DNA of 64,000 nt from an uncultured bacterium (GTDB lineage: Bacteria; Patescibacteriota; JACMRA01). Of this stretch, positions 54,902 through 64,000 are shown piece after piece; the first letter of the stretch is position 1; each line of letters opens with the position of its first letter. A program made the translations under genes and the position numbers. The stretch is from positions 992,001 through 1,056,000 of the forward strand of contig OY969926.1 in assembly GCA_963704645.1 (NCBI GenBank). The letters run 5' to 3'. The notes beneath the pieces were generated by a model. That model worked only from the letters and a program-made list of their open reading frames with translations, ran no database searches and had not been told where the DNA came from.

Positions 54902-56758
54902 TTAATCTTGGACTTCGAAACAATTTATGAGACTTAAAAGAATAACAAAAACCGACCAAAACCGATATGTTAATTTGAAGCTTCCAGCACTAAAATATTT
55001 TAGATCATAGCCGTGTGCTAATATATTTCTATATCCGTCATTACTATTAAAAAGATAAGCATTGATAAACTGTATAAATCCTTTTATTTCTAAATCGCCA
55101 ACATAATTATCTGAAAAATCTTTAGCATTTTTTTCTATTTCATTAAGCATATTATCAGTTCCTACAAATTTTGTTTTATTATCTTGAATGTTAAAAAAAC
55201 TATTTTTGGTTGAAACACTAAAAAGTATTCTTATAAGAATTTCAATTTTGCTCATAAGACTTTCAGCAAATACAGAGTTTCTAAATATCAACTTATCAAT
55301 TTCGTTTTTGTTTAAGTTTCCTGCCTCTAAAAAAGAATCTTTCAGAGTATTGAACTCTTCAAATAACATTTTAGAAACTTCTGGTAAATTTATGTATCTC
55401 TCACCAAAATCTTTAAATTTCAAAATATTCTCCAACCTTGATGATATTAATTCATCGAATTCGTCTGGGTTAAGTTTTTGAATAATAAATTCGAATATTA
55501 AATCTAGCGTAAATGAATTATTTGTAAATAAATTCTCATTATAAAAATTATTACCCACATAACTAGTACCCTTATTATCTAAATTTAATTTAGTGAAAAG
55601 GTTTGTAAACGAATTGTGTTCAGACTCAATATTTGAATAATAATTTATTGATATGAAATATCTTGAAGCTATTGTTATTCTTACAAACAATGGGCTGGAT
55701 TTAATTTTTTCAAAGTACTCACGAAATGCTACTACAGTTTTAGTCATATCAACTGAAATAGGCTGCATGGTGCTTCTTGCTATTTTACTATTTTCTTCCT
55801 CCAATGAAACAATTTTTTTATTAAATTCATGTAAGTCTTGCTTAGAATAATTATTATTTTTATTTAACAATAACTTGGATTTACTAATAATCTGGCTGGC
55901 CAGTGCCCAATTAAAATCATCTCTCTTGAAATAGCCTTCCAAACGATTCAAAATAATTTCCATTAGGTCTCTATGCCAATTTAAAAATTCAGGTTTACTA
56001 GGTACATTAGATATCAAATCTAGTAATCTTGAAAAAGATTGATCTTCCAAATATAACTTTGAAGCTAGGTTGCATATTTTTGAATATACCAATTCTAGTT
56101 CGATTGTTTCAATCCATTTATATTTTTTTATTAAAAATTCTGATATTATCAGACTGAAAAGATTGACAGATTCAAATGGTGTTTTATATAATTCAAAAAT
56201 TAAATTCTTTGTCGAATTATAATCAATTTTATTTTTAACTACATCTTCAAGGAAATAATCCAAAATAATCCAAAACTTTTTTAAATTGGGAGCATTACCT
56301 ACCATTAATTCACTCCAGAATACATTATATTTTTCTAAAATATTTTCTTTAAAGTCTTTATATTCCTTCCCCAATCCTTCTTTTCCACTTTTTTTTCCAT
56401 GATTTTTAATTATATAAATTTCATTTAACAAGTTTAAATACTCAATTTGAAAAGCAATTGGCAAGTTATATACTTGGCTTAAGTTTTCATTTAAAAAAGT
56501 ATATGTATCTTCAAAACTTAAAAAGTTATCTGCATTGTTGTTTTGAGTTTCAAAATAAGTTCTTAAACCACCATTCCAATATCCACTAATATTAATTAAT
56601 TTAAGAAATATTTCCACATCTTTTCTATTATTTTCTTCTTGCAGTTGTACTTTATCTAAATGAAAAATTGCCATTCTAAAATCATTGTCTACAGGATCAT
56701 ATTCATTTCCATAGTTTTTCAGTATAAATTCTATAAATTTTTTATCTTTTAAAAACAT
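54902..56758 (-). CDS. Large helical protein with a C-terminal HEPN-like (DUF4209-like) domain
   Basis: KIEILIR...RNILAHG (RxxxxH); very AT-rich. Confidence 0.65.
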   Translation of the reverse strand: MFLKDKKFIEFILKNYGNEYDPVDNDFRMAIFHLDKVQLQEENNRKDVEIFLKLINISGYWNGGLRTYFETQNNNADNFLSFEDTYTFLNENLSQVYNLPIAFQIEYLNLLNEIYIIKNHGKKSGKEGLGKEYKDFKENILEKYNVFWSELMVGNAPNLKKFWIILDYFLEDVVKNKIDYNSTKNLIFELYKTPFESVNLFSLIISEFLIKKYKWIETIELELVYSKICNLASKLYLEDQSFSRLLDLISNVPSKPEFLNWHRDLMEIILNRLEGYFKRDDFNWALASQIISKSKLLLNKNNNYSKQDLHEFNKKIVSLEEENSKIARSTMQPISVDMTKTVVAFREYFEKIKSSPLFVRITIASRYFISINYYSNIESEHNSFTNLFTKLNLDNKGTSYVGNNFYNENLFTNNSFTLDLIFEFIIQKLNPDEFDELISSRLENILKFKDFGERYINLPEVSKMLFEEFNTLKDSFLEAGNLNKNEIDKLIFRNSVFAESLMSKIEILIRILFSVSTKNSFFNIQDNKTKFVGTDNMLNEIEKNAKDFSDNYVGDLEIKGFIQFINAYLFNSNDGYRNILAHGYDLKYFSAGSFKLTYRFWSVFVILLSLINCFEVQD

Positions 56759-56760
56759 AA

Positions 56761-57111
56761 TTATTTTGCTTGGTTTTTTATTATTTCACTAAATATTTCA
56801 TTAGGTGGATTTTTTCCAACAATGGGAAATAGGTTTGCAACAATTACATCACCTCGTATAATGGTTTTTGTGACATTTACAGGACCTGTACCGTTATGTA
56901 CAACATTACCCTTACCGATATTATTTTGCTCAGTTTTTGAATTAAAAATGATTAATGAGTCTATTTTGTTAACAATATTACTTTCACTTGCCTTAATACT
57001 TTTTTTATTTAAATACCAAGTAAAAAATATTGAAATAAGATTAAGCATGCCAACTATAAAGACAGGAACTGTAGCAATAACAAGTGGTTGATTTAAAAAA
57101 TTTGTTATCAT
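56761..57111 (-). CDS. Small single-TM protein
   Basis: N-terminal hydrophobic helix; its stop lies 2 nt before the start of the HEPN-like gene. Confidence 0.6.
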   Translation of the reverse strand: MITNFLNQPLVIATVPVFIVGMLNLISIFFTWYLNKKSIKASESNIVNKIDSLIIFNSKTEQNNIGKGNVVHNGTGPVNVTKTIIRGDVIVANLFPIVGKNPPNEIFSEIIKNQAK

Positions 57112-57223
57112 CTCTTTTATATAAATACTTTATAGACTAGTAGTATTTTAGACCAATATTTTGTCAAAGATAATTTTAGCAATCATAACGGGTTTTGTTC
57201 TATATGTCTTAATCCTTTTTCAA

Positions 57224-57541
57224 TTAAACTAAATCTAATAAATTGATGATTTCTTCTAAACTATTCTGATCTAATTCTTTAATAGATAAAATTGATTCCA
57301 GCGATTCAAATATCCAAGCAAATTTTAGAGGATTGTTTGTTTCCATAAATTTAACAATTGATACTTTATCAACTGTATTAATTCCAAGAGTGGTTTTAAT
57401 TTTCTCTATAAAATCAATATAGTTTTCTACTTTATCAGGCCAATCATTTATAGCTTGATCAATGTTTTTTCTTATTTTTTCAATTTCAGTTTGAGTTAAT
57501 TTTGTAAGCATATTTATAGACTTATAAATTCCATTTATCAA
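57224..57541 (-). CDS. Orphan immunity-like hypothetical protein
   Basis: Small AT-rich ORF in the tight array after the toxin; the start may be ATG ~57511. Confidence 0.55.
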   Translation of the reverse strand: MINGIYKSINMLTKLTQTEIEKIRKNIDQAINDWPDKVENYIDFIEKIKTTLGINTVDKVSIVKFMETNNPLKFAWIFESLESILSIKELDQNSLEEIINLLDLV

Positions 57542-57548
57542 TAAACTA

Positions 57549-57824
57549 TTATAAATCTTTAAACATTTCTTTACTCAAAAAAACAATTTCGTACTTAAAT
57601 TCTTCTTTATTTTTGTAGTTATTTAATATTTTCAATAGCTCAGACTTACTCTCCTCAACTAATTTATTCCACACTTTAACTCTTATGATTAATGTTGAAA
57701 GATCAATTATATCAATATTTTCTACTCTTCCATCAGTAATGGAAAATATATCTACACCTAATATAGGTTCACTGGATTGTTTTATTGAATTGTATAATTC
57801 TTGGTAATTTAATCTCCATTCCAA
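57549..57824 (-). CDS. Orphan immunity-like protein (weakly Imm40-like), possibly 5'-truncated
   Basis: PILGVDIF...S...L...NY...YEIV pattern; TTG start with an in-frame TGA just upstream. Confidence 0.45.
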   Translation of the reverse strand: MEWRLNYQELYNSIKQSSEPILGVDIFSITDGRVENIDIIDLSTLIIRVKVWNKLVEESKSELLKILNNYKNKEEFKYEIVFLSKEMFKDL

Positions 57825-57851
57825 AAAATTATTTATTCATGCATTTTTAAG

Positions 57852-58199
57852 CTAATTTATATAACTTATTTTATTAATTATAATACTTTCACTATTTGTA
57901 AATGAAATAACAATCTCATCCTCAGCAAATGACCTTATTGTTAAGAAATTATCAGAGATATCTAAACTTGAAATTGTAAAATGAAATCTTGGATCTGTTT
58001 CTTTATTAAAACTATTTTTAAAAGATTCAATCTTATACGGGGCTTTAATAATTATTTCGTAATCTATGTTTTCATCCCAGTAGAATAATATTCCTATTTT
58101 GATTTCAGATAAAAAATGCTCTGTATTCAATTTTTCTATCCTACTCTCAGTAAAGTTTATTTTAGATAGTTCTTCTTTTTTTATTGTGGTTATGTTCAT
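57852..58199 (-). CDS. Orphan immunity-like hypothetical protein
   Basis: Overlaps the previous gene by 4 nt (ATGA coupling). Confidence 0.6.
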   Translation of the reverse strand: MNITTIKKEELSKINFTESRIEKLNTEHFLSEIKIGILFYWDENIDYEIIIKAPYKIESFKNSFNKETDPRFHFTISSLDISDNFLTIRSFAEDEIVISFTNSESIIINKISYIN

Positions 58200-58483
58200 T
58201 TTATTGCATTATAAACATTATTATCAATATCAATTTTCTCGAGGTTTTTTATTTGTTCATTAGCTTTCCAAATAGCTGGTATTCTTTCTTTCTTTTTAAA
58301 AATCATACCATTATTTATCCAAGCTTTTCTAAGTGAAATAATTTTTTGCATGTCAGAATTTAATAAATGGTATCCAAATTCTGTACCGCAGCAAGGACAT
58401 ATTTCAAAAGATCCACATGAAAATTTATCAAAGGGTGGTTCAAATAATTTATCAAAACCGCAAATTGGGCAAATGTAATTCAT
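58196..58483 (-). CDS. Cognate immunity protein, CPCC Cys-rich type
   Basis: CPICG...SFEICPCCGTEFG...LRKAWINNG; starts 2 nt after the toxin stop codon. Confidence 0.8.
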   Translation of the reverse strand: MNYICPICGFDKLFEPPFDKFSCGSFEICPCCGTEFGYHLLNSDMQKIISLRKAWINNGMIFKKKERIPAIWKANEQIKNLEKIDIDNNVYNAIK

Positions 58484-58485
58484 AG

Positions 58486-61400
58486 TTATTGTTTGTTGTA
58501 GTAATCTAAGTTAGTTGGCTCTCCATGAATTGCAGGATTTGGCTTATAGTATGTTCTTATTATTCCACTACTAGTCACCACACCAAATTCATTAGTTGAT
58601 GGATTAAACTTTACTATGTCGCCATTAATTCTAGTTTTCGAAAGTATGCTTGAATTGTCACTATTCATAAACGATTTTGCCAAAGCTTGGTATTGGGATG
58701 AGGATTTTGCACCAAAGTCTGCACCATGATCATTGTAGTGAGATTCTAGTGTGTTTTCATTAGCAAATCCCGTTGCACAATCTACATCCGCCCTAACCGA
58801 CACAACCCCAAACACAAATCCAAGAATAAGATCAGCAGCCGAAGCCTTCCCCAACAAACAACCACCCTTAGGTTCCTCAGAGTTTTTAGGTTTTGTTTTA
58901 GTGTCGTCAACCCCGTTCTTAACATTATCCAAATCATCCATTGCTTTGTTAAGTGCATTGGCCGCATCGTCCATGTTTGGCAAGGTTGGGTTTTTGTTTA
59001 AGTTGTCTGTGGCTTTACTTAAGTCATCTACAATTTTAGAAATGTCGTCTGTTACTTTGGCTAGGTCGTCTACTGTGCCAGCTACTTTAGAAACATCATC
59101 TAATACAGAACTAGATTTAGATATGGACGATGCTCCTTTAGATATTGCCCCTACACCAGCTGCTAAGGCTTCCCCTGTAAGAACTTGTCCTGCAAAGTAG
59201 CCTATACAAGTGGCAGGGTTTGGATCTGTTGTTCCACAAAAGTTTTGAGCTAGGTTTTGGTTAAACTTATCAGGGTCAAAGCTTAGTGATGGTGGGTTAA
59301 AGGAAATATTAGTTGCACTAACTGCAGCCGAAACCGTGTTAATTGTGGCTCCAATTATTGCTCCTGTAATAATAGTTGTGGCTATTGCTCCTGCTGTTCC
59401 ACCAATACCTACAACAGCAAGGCCTGCCCCTACTGCACCTGCTACAAAAGGTGCTGCTACAATGGTTAGAGCTACTACACCTACTACTAGGGCAATTTTA
59501 CCAATTCCACTTAAATAGTCTCCGTTTTTAAAGTCATCTATTATACCTGTGGTAAAGTCTGCTATACCTGTTACCACGCTTGCAGCTCCGTTAATTACAC
59601 CTTTAGTAAAACAATTGTCTCCGCTGAATATGTTAAAGTCGTTGTTGTATTTATTCTTTTCTGCTTCGGCGGTTGCTTTTGCTTGTTGGGCTTCTATCTC
59701 GGCTTTTTGTTTTTCATAGTCAGCTACGGCTTGTTTGTAATTATCTATACTATCTTGGTATGCTGTTTTAATATTAGCTATTTCGTCATTGGTTAAAAGA
59801 GAAGTATCGCAAGTTTTGTTGGCTGGAGTTGGACCTACAAAATTAGTTTCTTTTCTTAGTCTGTTAAGTTCGTTTGCTTGAACACAACTACTAGCTTCAC
59901 TTTTAGCTTTGGCCTGTGTTTGAAGTTCATCATTAACTTGAGATTGAATTAAGTTTGGTTCGTATACATTACAAGATTTACTAAAGCCTAAGTCTGGCAA
60001 TGGGGAATTTGGATCTGTAAGGTTTTTAACATAATCTTTTATGGTAGATTTTTGAGAATCACTTAAATTACACTCCCCGCTTCTTGGTGGACGAACAGGG
60101 GTGGTAATAGATTTACAAGTATTACCAGAAGTATTTGTTGCCCTGTCTGCTAAATTAGAACAGAAGGTGAAGGTGTTTTCCCAGTCGGAATCGTTATGAA
60201 CACTAAGGGTTTTTACTGTGGAAGTTTTGTTTCCCTGCTTTCCAATATTTCCAACCAAATTAGAAGTTGTGTAACTTTCCCCCGATACATTTCCAGAAAT
60301 TGTGTATGGCTCTTGTTTGTAAACAAAGTTTAAAGAGAGGTTTAGATTTGGATTATTTGGAGTTAAGGTGTCTCTTTCAATTTGGAAACATTTTAAACCA
60401 ATTTCATTGTCTGCAGAATCTGCAGAGTTGTAACATATTTGGTATATTCCGTCTTCCGCAAGGCCTGCCGCTCCGTCTTTGTCTGCAGTTTTGCTGCCTA
60501 AAGTAAAAGATACAGTATGCTTTTGGTTAGTGGCATTAATGAAAGTTTTAGATTGGTTAGAAACCAAATTTCCTACATTATCTAACAAGAAATATTCCAC
60601 ATCTGCTTGTTGCTCGGTAATACCTTCCAAAGTTAAATCTAGTTGATTTGTAACTACTGGAAGATTACCTCGGCCATCGGCGTAAAACTTTGGTGCTCCG
60701 TCGGTTTGGAAGTCTATTAAAGGATTAAATTTATTGGAGAGAGCGTTCTGAATAGAAAAGAATTGAGGAACAGTTTTGTCGTATTCCAACAAATATTGGC
60801 GAGTGTGTTCGCTTCTGTTGCCAGATTTATCTTCGTTACGCCACTGGACCAAATAGACACCTTCAGCTTTAGAGCTTGCCCCTGGCTTAGTACCTTGGGT
60901 AGAAGTATTCAAGGTTCCTGCTTTTAACAAAGTTTGATAAAGTTCTTCAAATTTAACTTGAATAGCAAACAAACAATGGGTTTTATTTTGAACTACAGTT
61001 CCGTCTGCGGCTATAGTTTCTTGGTTTTCTACCAAATTTCCATTAACCTTAGATTGTTCGGAACACCCGTTATTAACAACTTCAACAGCTACAATGTCGG
61101 TGTTATTTATACTTAGAATTGGATGAGTATCTTTTTCGGCAAACCCATAGAAAAATACAGAATCATCTTTTAAAACATAGTTTTTCTGGTTGTCTATTTG
61201 AAGAAGTCTATTGTTAGCAGGTCTAAAATATGAAGGTTCAATGTAGGCAGGTTGAGCAAAAATTCTTCTTTCAAAACCAGTTAAATTTCCCCATAAAGAA
61301 AAGTCTTGGGTTGGGGCATTAGGACCAACATTGTCTATAATATAGTCTTTGGTAGTTTGGGTAATATTTCCAGCAAGGTCGGCAATTTCAACTTCAACTT

Positions 61401-64000
61401 GGTAATTCCCTTGGGCTGCGTAACCTTCTATTTGGAACAAACCACCAGCTGCAAAATATGGAGTGTAATTTGAAGGGCGGCTTCCAGAGTTTGCCACAGG
61501 ACTTAATTCATACCTAAACTTTTCGTTTTGATTAGTAATCTTTCCATACTCTAACACTTCGTCAGCTTCCAATTCAACCTCTACTGTATCGCCGCTTTGC
61601 CTGTTAAAACCGTTTGGCATTCCAGCTCCGTTATTACAGTAAACTCCGTTTGGGGTAGCTCCTAAAATAATGGAAGGGCTGGCTGGTAAATTGGTAATTG
61701 TTAAATTATCTTTGGTACACAAATGTTTGTTTACAGCATCGCTGTTATTATTGTTTAAATTTCTATAAGCTACCAAACTTGGGGCAATTGTGTCTACAAC
61801 AAGTGCAGTATTTTCTAAACTTTCTACAGTTTTTACTCCTTTAGTTGCCACTACTTTTAGACTGTAATTAGTGTTGGTATTAGAGGTTGAGGTACTTAAT
61901 GTACAAGAAAAAATGCTAATTTCTGAAGTAACAGTTTGGCAGACTGTGTTTCCAGATATAATATCAATAATTGCGATGTTGGTGGAAGGATCGGCGAACC
62001 CTTTAATTTCGTTGGCTAAAGAATTAGAGTAATATTTTCCATTATACAACCTCGTGTTTTCAGAGGTGGAGGGAGCAACAATTTTGTTAATATCGTAAAT
62101 AGTTGGAGTAGTTAAAATGTTAGCATCAAGCCAAACTCCAGCCGACAAAGTTTGTTCTATACTTCCTTTTCTTCCTGTAAAATTAACTTCATAAAGTCCT
62201 CCGTTAAAACTTGGCACAGGGTAAACAACATCCCAAGTACATTCGGTTGATGAGCAAGGTGTTGTAAGCGGGTCACCAGCGGAGTTGTAAGTTACATCAC
62301 CTAAAATATTCTTGGTGTAATCAAAAGGTGAATTATCTATCCATCCAATTTTTTGTTTAACTTCATTCCCAGAAAGCTCGCTTAAATTAGTTAAATTAGA
62401 ATAGCTAAGTTTAACGTATTGGGTATCGGCCGTAACAGTTGAGCGTAATATTAGCTTTTTAGCAGAATTAATTTCAGTTTCAAGTTGAGTCTTAATATTG
62501 TCTTTTTCGGTTTGGGAAGAAGCGGCCAGCCACTGGTTTTGTAAATCTTCAATTTTAGCAATTTGAGCTACACTATTTATTCCAGAAAAAGTAGGAATTG
62601 ATTGAACCGAGATGAATGGATCTACAGGATTATTTCTTACAAAAACTTGATTAGAAGGAAGCCCTTCGTTTCCAAATTTATCTACAATTGTAGCCTGAAT
62701 TATATGATTAGTTATGCCTGGGTTTGCAGGGTCTGAGGTAATTTTTGGTAAAGCAACTATAACCGAGAAATAGCCATCAGCGCTAACCGAAGCCATCTGT
62801 TCAAAATCGCAACTTCCATTTAAACCAAGTGTATCAACACAAATTCTAACACTTACATCTTCAGGGTTTAAACCTGCAAATAAATTAGCCTGACCTTGCA
62901 CTTCGGTAACGCCAGAAGAAGTTATGAACGGTGTATTGCTAGAAGCCCCAGACGGATAAGTAATGAAAACTCCTGGTGTGTTTTTGGTAATATTTTGGAA
63001 AGCCCCAGAAATGTTAGGTAGGTTAGAATTATCTACAGAATTTAAATCTAAATTCCATGTATAGTTTCCATCTTCTAACCAATTTCCAGAGTCATCTTTT
63101 CCATCAAAAATTAAACTTGGTGGAAGCGAGTTGGAACCACTAATTGTTTTTACAACATCTCCATTGGAATTTTTTAAAGTCCAGCTCCAAGTATCAACTA
63201 GAATAGGATCGGCGGCATTATTTGGGTTTGAAATTGCCCCTTCAAAATAAATTCCATCTTGCTTGCCGTTGCCATCTGTAGAAATAAAAGTGGTTCCGTA
63301 TTGTTTGCCAGCATTATTGGAAGCAGCAAAACTTAGATTCACCGAAAATAAATTAACTTTAATAGTTTTAGTTAAGCTTTGGGTATTTCCAGCCAAATCG
63401 GCGATTGTAATTATATTATCATTAAGAATTTCTGGATTAGGGTTTGCAGCATCGTTACTTGAAGACTGTGGTAAATCTACACTGTAGCTACAAATTGGAT
63501 TTGTTGTTAAAGCCGAATTATCAAAATCTTGATCTTCGTTACAGGTTATAGTGAACGGACCTTGAACATAGCTTGCAGGAGTAATGTTACCAAGATTGAC
63601 GGACGGATTTGAACCAACAATTTGGCCTAAACTTCCATTACTAGTTTCATCTAAAACAATTTGTGTGGAGTATGTTTCGACTCCTAAATTAGCTAACGGC
63701 GCAGCAGACTTTAACTGAGAATTTTCTAATTTTAAAGTTGCCCCCTTCTCGCCTTTACCTTCAAAACGGACTATCTTTCTGGCGTAAACCGAGTTAGCTG
63801 ACGGACTAGAATTTTCTACAAAAGTGAAAGAATCTAAATTCAATTTTGCTTTGTCATAACTAAACAAATTTCCAGCTTTATCCTTCCCCGAAAGTACAAA
63901 TGTATACTGGCCATCAGGTTGAATTTCATTGGCAAAATTGTAACCGACGTCACAGGATGTTTGACCAGTAACAAAGTCTCCAGCTGGCACAATTTGGTCT
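58486..64000 (-). CDS. Polymorphic toxin: Ig-like/FlgD-like stalk, coiled coil, hydrophobic translocation region and C-terminal probable RNase tip (5'-partial)
   Basis: The frame is open to the window edge. Repeated D.AGN Ig motifs; FDGKDDSGNWLEDGNY (FlgD-like); Gly/Ala hydrophobic helices; tip LESHYNDHGADFG...NGDIVKFNPSTNEFGV...IRTYYKP. Confidence 0.85.
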   Translation of the reverse strand, partial: DQIVPAGDFVTGQTSCDVGYNFANEIQPDGQYTFVLSGKDKAGNLFSYDKAKLNLDSFTFVENSSPSANSVYARKIVRFEGKGEKGATLKLENSQLKSAAPLANLGVETYSTQIVLDETSNGSLGQIVGSNPSVNLGNITPASYVQGPFTITCNEDQDFDNSALTTNPICSYSVDLPQSSSNDAANPNPEILNDNIITIADLAGNTQSLTKTIKVNLFSVNLSFAASNNAGKQYGTTFISTDGNGKQDGIYFEGAISNPNNAADPILVDTWSWTLKNSNGDVVKTISGSNSLPPSLIFDGKDDSGNWLEDGNYTWNLDLNSVDNSNLPNISGAFQNITKNTPGVFITYPSGASSNTPFITSSGVTEVQGQANLFAGLNPEDVSVRICVDTLGLNGSCDFEQMASVSADGYFSVIVALPKITSDPANPGITNHIIQATIVDKFGNEGLPSNQVFVRNNPVDPFISVQSIPTFSGINSVAQIAKIEDLQNQWLAASSQTEKDNIKTQLETEINSAKKLILRSTVTADTQYVKLSYSNLTNLSELSGNEVKQKIGWIDNSPFDYTKNILGDVTYNSAGDPLTTPCSSTECTWDVVYPVPSFNGGLYEVNFTGRKGSIEQTLSAGVWLDANILTTPTIYDINKIVAPSTSENTRLYNGKYYSNSLANEIKGFADPSTNIAIIDIISGNTVCQTVTSEISIFSCTLSTSTSNTNTNYSLKVVATKGVKTVESLENTALVVDTIAPSLVAYRNLNNNNSDAVNKHLCTKDNLTITNLPASPSIILGATPNGVYCNNGAGMPNGFNRQSGDTVEVELEADEVLEYGKITNQNEKFRYELSPVANSGSRPSNYTPYFAAGGLFQIEGYAAQGNYQVEVEIADLAGNITQTTKDYIIDNVGPNAPTQDFSLWGNLTGFERRIFAQPAYIEPSYFRPANNRLLQIDNQKNYVLKDDSVFFYGFAEKDTHPILSINNTDIVAVEVVNNGCSEQSKVNGNLVENQETIAADGTVVQNKTHCLFAIQVKFEELYQTLLKAGTLNTSTQGTKPGASSKAEGVYLVQWRNEDKSGNRSEHTRQYLLEYDKTVPQFFSIQNALSNKFNPLIDFQTDGAPKFYADGRGNLPVVTNQLDLTLEGITEQQADVEYFLLDNVGNLVSNQSKTFINATNQKHTVSFTLGSKTADKDGAAGLAEDGIYQICYNSADSADNEIGLKCFQIERDTLTPNNPNLNLSLNFVYKQEPYTISGNVSGESYTTSNLVGNIGKQGNKTSTVKTLSVHNDSDWENTFTFCSNLADRATNTSGNTCKSITTPVRPPRSGECNLSDSQKSTIKDYVKNLTDPNSPLPDLGFSKSCNVYEPNLIQSQVNDELQTQAKAKSEASSCVQANELNRLRKETNFVGPTPANKTCDTSLLTNDEIANIKTAYQDSIDNYKQAVADYEKQKAEIEAQQAKATAEAEKNKYNNDFNIFSGDNCFTKGVINGAASVVTGIADFTTGIIDDFKNGDYLSGIGKIALVVGVVALTIVAAPFVAGAVGAGLAVVGIGGTAGAIATTIITGAIIGATINTVSAAVSATNISFNPPSLSFDPDKFNQNLAQNFCGTTDPNPATCIGYFAGQVLTGEALAAGVGAISKGASSISKSSSVLDDVSKVAGTVDDLAKVTDDISKIVDDLSKATDNLNKNPTLPNMDDAANALNKAMDDLDNVKNGVDDTKTKPKNSEEPKGGCLLGKASAADLILGFVFGVVSVRADVDCATGFANENTLESHYNDHGADFGAKSSSQYQALAKSFMNSDNSSILSKTRINGDIVKFNPSTNEFGVVTSSGIIRTYYKPNPAIHGEPTNLDYYNKQ

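Follow-up and report, generated by a model that had tools for sequence, protein, structure and literature searches.

A short Cys-bracketed hydrophobic loop between the carrier and the tRNase-fold tip of a patescibacterial polymorphic toxin: a possible membrane-active adapter

The window analyzed here is a 64,000-nucleotide stretch of contig OY969926.1 (positions 992,001 to 1,056,000) from an uncultured bacterium of the Patescibacteriota. The source genome (G000) is 1.27 Mb in one contig with a guanine plus cytosine (GC) content of 33.4% and is rated 87% complete. Its size alone points to a small-genome bacterium of the candidate phyla radiation type. The window contains the 3' part of a gene for a polymorphic toxin, a term used here in the sense of Zhang et al. 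(2012; PMC3482391). The open reading frame (ORF) encodes 2671 amino acids (aa) from the first ATG, is located at G000:C1 1050489-1058513 and extends past the window end. The element under study is a 28-residue hydrophobic loop of this toxin, bracketed by the cysteines C2548 and C2575 and lying between a helical linker and the C-terminal toxin tip. The features described are listed in Table 1.

Table 1. Features of the toxin gene, its surroundings and related loci (positions in the window unless another contig or locus is given).
Feature	Position	Strand	Remarks
Polymorphic toxin gene, 3' 5.5 kb	58486..63999	-	N-terminal Sec-type signal peptide and Ig-like stalk domains
Glycine-zipper stretch, residues 2336-2396	59314..59496	-	Uncharged, Gly/Ala/Val/Ile-rich; hydropathy up to 2.68
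Pretoxin module C-x9-C-IGYFAGQVLTG, residues 2422-2449	59155..59238	-	Conserved with the G009 paralogues
Helical acidic DD-x-x-K repeat linker, residues 2466-2547	58861..59106	-	Ends KPKNSEEPKGG; AlphaFold2 long helices, pLDDT 65-82
28-residue Cys-bracketed hydrophobic loop, C2548...C2575, residues 2548-2575	58777..58860	-	From translation
Toxin tip, 96 aa, residues 2576-2671	58489..58776	-	No Cys; predicted colicin D / CdiA-CT(O32:H37)-type tRNase (BECR) fold
Candidate immunity gene, 95 aa	58196..58483	-	CxxC...CPCC zinc-ribbon-like N-terminus; starts 3 bases past the toxin stop
Carrier paralogue ORFs of a second genome (G009)	L011 5656-6897 and 14079-15797; L012 6632-7840 (contigs C68 and C64)		Last carrier part plus a different tip each
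Giant sortase-signal proteins, examples	G000:C1 1206038-1223776, 270627-278606, 684202-691170, 964736-967252, 1173052-1175784
SIGGSGL paralogous family, examples	G000:C1 1125274-1131141, 754148-760009, 971960-977164, 798786-803183, 476179-480414, 633908-637999, 484469-486943

The loop translates exactly to CLLGKASAADLILGFVFGVVSVRADVDC, a C-x26-C arrangement with GG before the first Cys and ATGF after the second. The core, LILGFVFGVVSV, comprises 12 uncharged residues between D2557 and R2571 and includes one GxxxG motif. It is followed by V-R-A-D and then by V-D-C. An earlier sequence-only reading of this DNA had described a hydrophobic core running into V-R-A-D within GG-C-...-C-ATGF, and this description was exact on translation. 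The best 19-residue window of the loop has a Kyte-Doolittle hydropathy of 1.78. The last 239 residues of the toxin contain no Cys besides C2548 and C2575. Three Cys-bracketed hydrophobic loops were found in the 1176 ORFs (365,760 residues) of the genome and the toxin loop is the only one of them in a large exported protein. No Pfam match to the loop was found. The best score for the loop region in the ESM Atlas was 0.80, below the meaningful level of 0.9; the neighbors were toxin-type clusters and serve as a lead only. In AlphaFold2 models of residues 2396-2671 and 2290-2671 the loop had a predicted local distance difference test score (pLDDT) of 37-60 with a weak helix at 2555-2564. The score did not rise when the glycine zipper was included, and no conformation or Cys-Cys contact was readable. 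A sortase sorting signal was considered and rejected, as the loop is preceded by E-P-K-G-G without T or S, has a core of 12 residues where a sorting signal has approximately 20 and a tail of R-A-D-V-D where one has a basic tail, and is followed by 96 further residues where a sorting signal is C-terminal. A lipobox was also rejected, the motif being absent.

The tip is assigned, from sequence matches and modeling, to the colicin D / CdiA-CT-type tRNase fold and is predicted to act in the cytoplasm. Its sequence matched PDB 8ey4_A (E 3.5e-10), the CdiA-CT of a contact-dependent inhibition complex from E. coli O32:H37, and matched colicin D weakly. AlphaFold2 modeled the tip with a pLDDT of 96-98. 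Foldseek aligned it to 8ey4_A with a TMt of 0.86 and a root mean square deviation of 1.2 Å over 90 columns, and to colicin D chains (5znm/1tfo/1v74) with E values of 1.5e-3 to 7.7e-3. No Pfam or NCBIfam family was found for the tip. A search of 1.84 billion representatives returned 2364 members of the tip family at E <= 0.001. The near-invariant columns of the family (H, H, F, G, Y, R and others) are present in the toxin tip. Of the 2364 matches 150 were listed, and 131 of these begin at query 295-316, around C2575 at query 304. This places the start of the tip domain right after C2575, in agreement with the earlier placement of the loop directly before the toxin domain. A cytoplasm-acting tRNase of this kind would need to cross a membrane.

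The loop was sought in two protein sets (5.8 billion and 1.84 billion), in three contig collections and in a sample of 401 genomes from the phylum. A single relative with the loop was found. This was P0056, a 168-aa metagenomic fragment from a 957-base contig, and it was the only result of the homologue search among proteins of near length. The linker before the loop is identical at 29 of 38 residues and the loop itself at 20 of 28. Both Cys, V-R-A-D and nine residues of the core, ILGFVFGVV, are among the shared positions. Past the second Cys the sequence of P0056 can no longer be aligned; its tip, which starts at the next residue, is unrelated and had no match in Pfam, NCBIfam or PDB. As the same linker and loop carry another tip, a tip-swapping junction is placed at C2575. 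At the level of sequence comparison this confirms the junction proposed earlier, with the loop reused ahead of a second tip.

No loop was found among the 3153 candidates of the search for longer homologous proteins, and a region search with an 1837-aa protein returned only itself. The loop was not found in metagenome contigs (two scans), genome contigs (two scans) or viral contigs (one scan). A profile of loop and linker found only the source genome among the 401 genomes, besides a chance-level match to the linker alone in genome G049 (E 1.1e-3, query 8-37). The source genome itself has no second copy of the junction DNA, the loop or the tip. Two Cys around a hydrophobic stretch were also looked for in the 124 other members of the tip family that extend 40 residues or more beyond the tip motif on its N-terminal side, and none has them.

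Counting the source genome, 2 of the 27 genomes searched for the class and 2 of the 401 sampled from the phylum gave a match to the pretoxin module that lies upstream of the linker. The second genome, G009, belongs to the same family and another genus. It carries three ORFs with the module, of 394-572 aa from the first start codon, one of which is cut by a contig end. All three retain the stalk end and the glycine zipper, along with a short DDLKK linker and the Cys-pair/LTG module, in which the Cys pair, GQ and LTG are all kept. A different tip region follows the linker directly in each ORF, and a Cys-bracketed hydrophobic loop is absent. Two of them share another adapter of approximately 45 aa at the position of the loop, ahead of divergent tips. 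Reuse of the loop in P0056 and the different adapters in G009 indicate that the slot between linker and tip holds exchangeable adapters. Each of the three ORFs is followed by small ORFs, and they resemble orphan cassettes of this toxin family or short toxins that stand alone. The expectation that the motif is conserved while the tip varies was borne out in P0056 only; the three carrier paralogues and the 124 tip-family proteins lack the loop, and by the refuting condition of the earlier reading the motif does not count as conserved in the carrier. Two short proteins of the same tip family, P0087 and P0116, carry C-x(4-5)-C and then a hydrophobic stretch rich in Gly, Ala and Val ahead of the tip. 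Given these, the C-x9-C/LTG pretoxin module may be more widely spread than the genome searches indicate.

The carrier has the general form of a polymorphic toxin, with an N-terminal secretion signal and a long presentation stalk. Its end is conserved while the C-terminal tips are unrelated, as in P0056 and the three G009 paralogues. By our own reading of the sequence, residues 37-65 resemble a signal peptide (hydropathy 2.19). Pfam matched FlgD_ig at the cut-off and Big_13 weakly in the stalk. The glycine zipper is the most hydrophobic segment of the whole protein and has a homologous stretch in the G009 paralogues. AlphaFold2 placed two helices in it, at 2329-2363 and 2370-2396, with low pLDDT, and this stretch probably forms a two-helix membrane hairpin. 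The mature toxin contains 35 Cys which make 17 close pairs, a number that none of 20,000 random placements reached. The genome also encodes a DsbA-like Thioredoxin_4 protein. In the linker the DD-x-x-K unit recurs every 7-11 residues. A sub-threshold similarity of the linker to the plant PMEI helical-bundle family of Pfam was seen (E 2.7e-4, 21.5 bits, cut-off 29). A check of sequencing runs gave one run with a single contig of 276 bases, which covers 59059-59334, on the upstream side of the loop.

The base composition across the junction had been read as a change from G-rich to AT-rich codons marking a tip-swapping site. The shift is real, with a GC content of 0.476 in the loop and 0.607 at first codon positions. 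It is a matter of amino acid composition and not a sign of foreign origin or of a junction, as the Gly, Ala, Val and Asp codons of the loop raise the GC content of its first codon positions. Tip and carrier are alike in GC content (0.358 vs 0.367) and in GC content at third codon positions (GC3; 0.271 vs 0.262). A real drop occurs at the gene after the toxin (GC 0.270, GC3 0.179).

This gene, the 95-aa ORF, is a candidate immunity gene by position only. It had no family match above cut-off (Cys_rich_CPCC, E 1.5) and no relative in PDB. It is the first of six ORFs after the toxin (54902-58483, minus strand) of 95, 115, 91, 105, 116 and 618 aa, none of which matched a family. The run is AT-rich, with GC of 0.23-0.27 and GC3 of 0.15-0.22 against a genome GC of 0.334, and it may be an immunity or orphan-immunity island. 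Elsewhere in the genome, which has two sortase genes, several giant proteins end in a variant sortase signal made up of L-[VP]-R-[TS]-G-G, a hydrophobic span and a basic tail. A near-identical C-terminal stretch of approximately 130 residues ending in SIGGSGL is common to at least seven large ORFs (825-1956 aa), whose N-terminal parts vary.

Our tentative reading of the loop is that of a membrane-active adapter, stapled by a disulfide, through which the nuclease tip would more easily reach or cross the cytoplasmic membrane of the target cell. We give this reading a rough probability of 0.4. On this view a pretoxin module of small size, restricted to one lineage, would have been inserted where the helical linker meets the exchangeable tip. 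Outside the cell the flanking Cys would probably close this loop by a disulfide. The stapled hydrophobic hairpin, or a short GxxxG helix, would then dip into the cytoplasmic membrane of the target, either by itself or jointly with the glycine zipper upstream. Its insertion would ease the crossing of the nuclease tip in the way that CdiA-CT entry domains and the GxxxG segment of Tde1 do. The position of the loop exactly between linker and tip supports this reading, as do its reuse with a second tip, the exchange of adapters in this slot and the need of a tRNase tip to cross a membrane, and the Cys pairing pattern of the whole protein together with the DsbA-like gene makes a disulfide plausible. 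The 12-residue core is too short for a stable membrane span, which fits a loop with both ends on one side of the membrane. The two-helix model of the glycine zipper would, at low confidence, leave everything downstream of it outside.

Several observations weigh against such a role. The G009 paralogues and the 124 tip-family proteins do without the loop, and it is therefore dispensable for both the carrier and the tip. Its conservation is thin, with one other sequence at 71-76% identity and no evolutionary depth. It is conserved no better than the linker (20/28 vs 29/38 residues), and the two sequences are close relatives. In both AlphaFold2 constructs it is poorly modeled (pLDDT 37-60) and packs neither on the tip nor on the glycine zipper. 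Known entry domains are far larger than its 28 residues. VKOR was not found in the genome, which is rated 87% complete.

Some of these points would equally suit a loop of no dedicated function, a hitch-hiking piece of linker or a recombination scar in two close genes. Only two proteins carry it in all protein, genome and contig collections searched, its conservation equals that of the neighboring linker, the paralogues dispense with it and the AlphaFold2 confidence is low. This explanation is considered somewhat unlikely, as the Cys pair of the loop matches the disulfide pattern of the whole toxin and an exposed 12-residue hydrophobic stretch in a secreted protein would be costly unless used. 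The identity of ILGFVFGVV in both sequences also speaks against it, weakly, since by our own arithmetic this would occur by chance at about 0.07 at 74% identity. The hydropathy of the loop (1.78 over 19 residues), the short AlphaFold2 helix at 2555-2564 and a GxxxG that could pack with the upstream glycine-zipper helices would allow for a stop-transfer segment or anchor. The core would then span the producer membrane and keep the tip at or inside the producer with the immunity protein until delivery. Such an anchor is highly doubtful. The 12 uncharged residues from D2557 to R2571 would be short for a bilayer span, and a pair of Cys on opposite sides of a membrane would be pointless, as the other Cys of the toxin form close pairs. 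The G009 paralogues have no such segment and the loop pLDDT was no higher with the glycine zipper modeled.

Two further explanations involve cleavage. In AB toxins such as diphtheria toxin, exotoxin A, Shiga toxin and the clostridial neurotoxins, two Cys bracket a nicked loop at the boundary between delivery and catalytic parts, and these loops are polar with basic protease sites. A protease other than signal peptidase I (SPase I), for example a trypsin-like enzyme cutting after R2571 or K2552, could nick the toxin loop in the same way while the disulfide held the chains together until reduction. The Cys pair surrounds 26 residues exactly at the carrier/catalytic boundary, R2571 and K/R2552 are kept in P0056, and pre-toxin domains have been proposed as sites of proteolytic processing (PMC3482391). 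Nicking is nonetheless unlikely. The toxin loop is hydrophobic, unlike the polar, basic-rich loops of AB toxins, and its disulfide and cleavage are putative. AlphaFold2 gave no exposed ordered loop, no dedicated protease gene was identified beside the toxin, and the loop is carried by two sequences only. The sequence-only reading had favored an internal signal-peptide mimic, in which SPase I of the producer or the target would cut after V-R-A (A2572) and a C2548-C2575 disulfide would tether the tip of approximately 11 kDa until its reduction in the target cytoplasm. This is quite improbable. SPase I cuts after a membrane-spanning h-region oriented N-in/C-out. That topology would put C2548 at the cytoplasmic face, away from C2575, and so no disulfide would form between them; the two parts of the model conflict. 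The conserved Cys pair 2422/2432 and the two-helix zipper would moreover suggest an outside location for the N-terminal side of the loop, opposite to the orientation that SPase I requires. The loop does have a 12-residue h-region, LILGFVFGVVSV, with V at -3, A at -1 and D at +1, all of which are kept in P0056. The N-terminal signal peptide of the toxin itself seems to end in A-V-K-A before Q, at a predicted site, and the genome has two SPase I genes. The V/A-x-A pattern noted earlier is thus present, but as evidence for a signal peptidase site it is weak, since [AV]xA follows 21 of 275 internal hydrophobic stretches of the proteome by chance and the loose -3/-1 rule is satisfied after 165 of 275. 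No basic n-region lies beside the core; D2557 abuts it and the 12 preceding residues have a net charge of 0. The loop is also internal, beginning at residue 2548 of 2671 after approximately 2500 exported residues, and the G009 paralogues are without it. Colicin D, with the same tip fold, needs LepB for processing and toxicity, but this requirement is described as non-catalytic in the text cited (PMC4026351). One form of this model is judged very improbable, namely a HINT-free release device in which a signal-peptide mimic in a disulfide loop would be presented to SPase I at the outer face of the target or producer membrane and cut after VRA, with the disulfide as the only tether of the tip until reduction. 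Such a device would give the connection of colicin D with LepB a catalytic counterpart in a bacterium with an ultra-small genome.

The release and membrane crossing of the nuclease tips of polymorphic toxins are poorly understood, above all in small-genome bacteria with sortases. The toxin described here is a compact case with a Sec-exported carrier, a glycine-zipper hairpin, a rare pretoxin module (2/401 genomes) and a Cys-stapled element reused with two tips. Should the loop be a membrane-entry or cleavage element, it would be among the smallest such modules known.

Among known systems, the PT-HINT domain occupies the same slot upstream of the same tip family. The motif [VIL]HN-x(0-4)-C was found there in 11 of 152 proteins (the 150 listed matches plus the toxin counted twice). 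PT-HINT is a self-cleaving domain of approximately 130-150 aa with a Hint fold, starting with Cys and ending in HN, whereas the loop has 28 aa, no HN, and R-A in that place. A HINT relic was rejected. Against a hidden Markov model built from the final 24 residues of the 11 HINT domains that precede this tip, the loop reached -1.7 bits and P0056 -1.3 bits; a score as high as that of the loop was reached by 1598 of 2000 shuffles. The earlier suggestion that the loop replaces HINT holds for the slot and not for any similarity to the HINT C-terminal block. In the HINT-bearing toxins of this tip family (P0025, P0063, P0069, P0080, P0117, P0146 and others) the +1 Cys lies 9-14 residues before the first conserved His, and C2575 lies 12 residues before it. 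The boundary of the tip cassette seems to coincide with a Cys in unrelated carriers.

The proposed membrane-active adapter most resembles the CdiA-CT entry domains, for example the PtsG-dependent domain of EC3006. These also form a module between a carrier and a BECR tRNase tip, occur with varied tips and have a Cys pair (PMC9424206). Their disulfide is reported to stabilize the domain and promote translocation (PMC9424206). The entry domains have approximately nine helices after VENN and belong to Gram-negative two-partner-secretion effectors, and according to the account cited none of these helices is hydrophobic enough to span a membrane (PMC9424206). The toxin has a 28-residue hydrophobic loop without VENN in a Sec-exported carrier from a sortase-bearing organism, and no sequence similarity between the loop and the entry domains was found. 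The likeness is an analogy of function and not membership, given the differences in size, VENN and helical architecture. Colicin D shares the tRNase tip fold and provides a precedent for a signal peptidase in tip release, as its import and processing need the signal peptidase LepB and FtsH (PMC4026351). It differs in that LepB binds the central domain in a non-catalytic role, in its Gram-negative envelope, and in that no Cys-bracketed signal-like loop is described in the text cited (PMC4026351). In Tde1, a nuclease effector of the type VI secretion system, GxxxG is needed for membrane permeabilization and delivery (PMC10240207). Here too a short hydrophobic GxxxG segment is joined to a nuclease toxin, although the segment of Tde1 is described as N-terminal, with repeated GxxxG and no Cys bracket (PMC10240207). 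The toxin has a single GxxxG in the loop and a separate 61-residue glycine zipper 150 residues upstream. A looser functional likeness is to the IMT domain of pyocin G (PMC9040868). The likeness to CdiA-CT entry domains, Tde1 and pyocin G is in each case functional and not one of descent, and the loop belongs to none of these families. The loop is a lead rather than a discovery; on sequence comparison it would be placed among the pretoxin and entry modules already known from polymorphic toxins, as a small and rarely seen variant.

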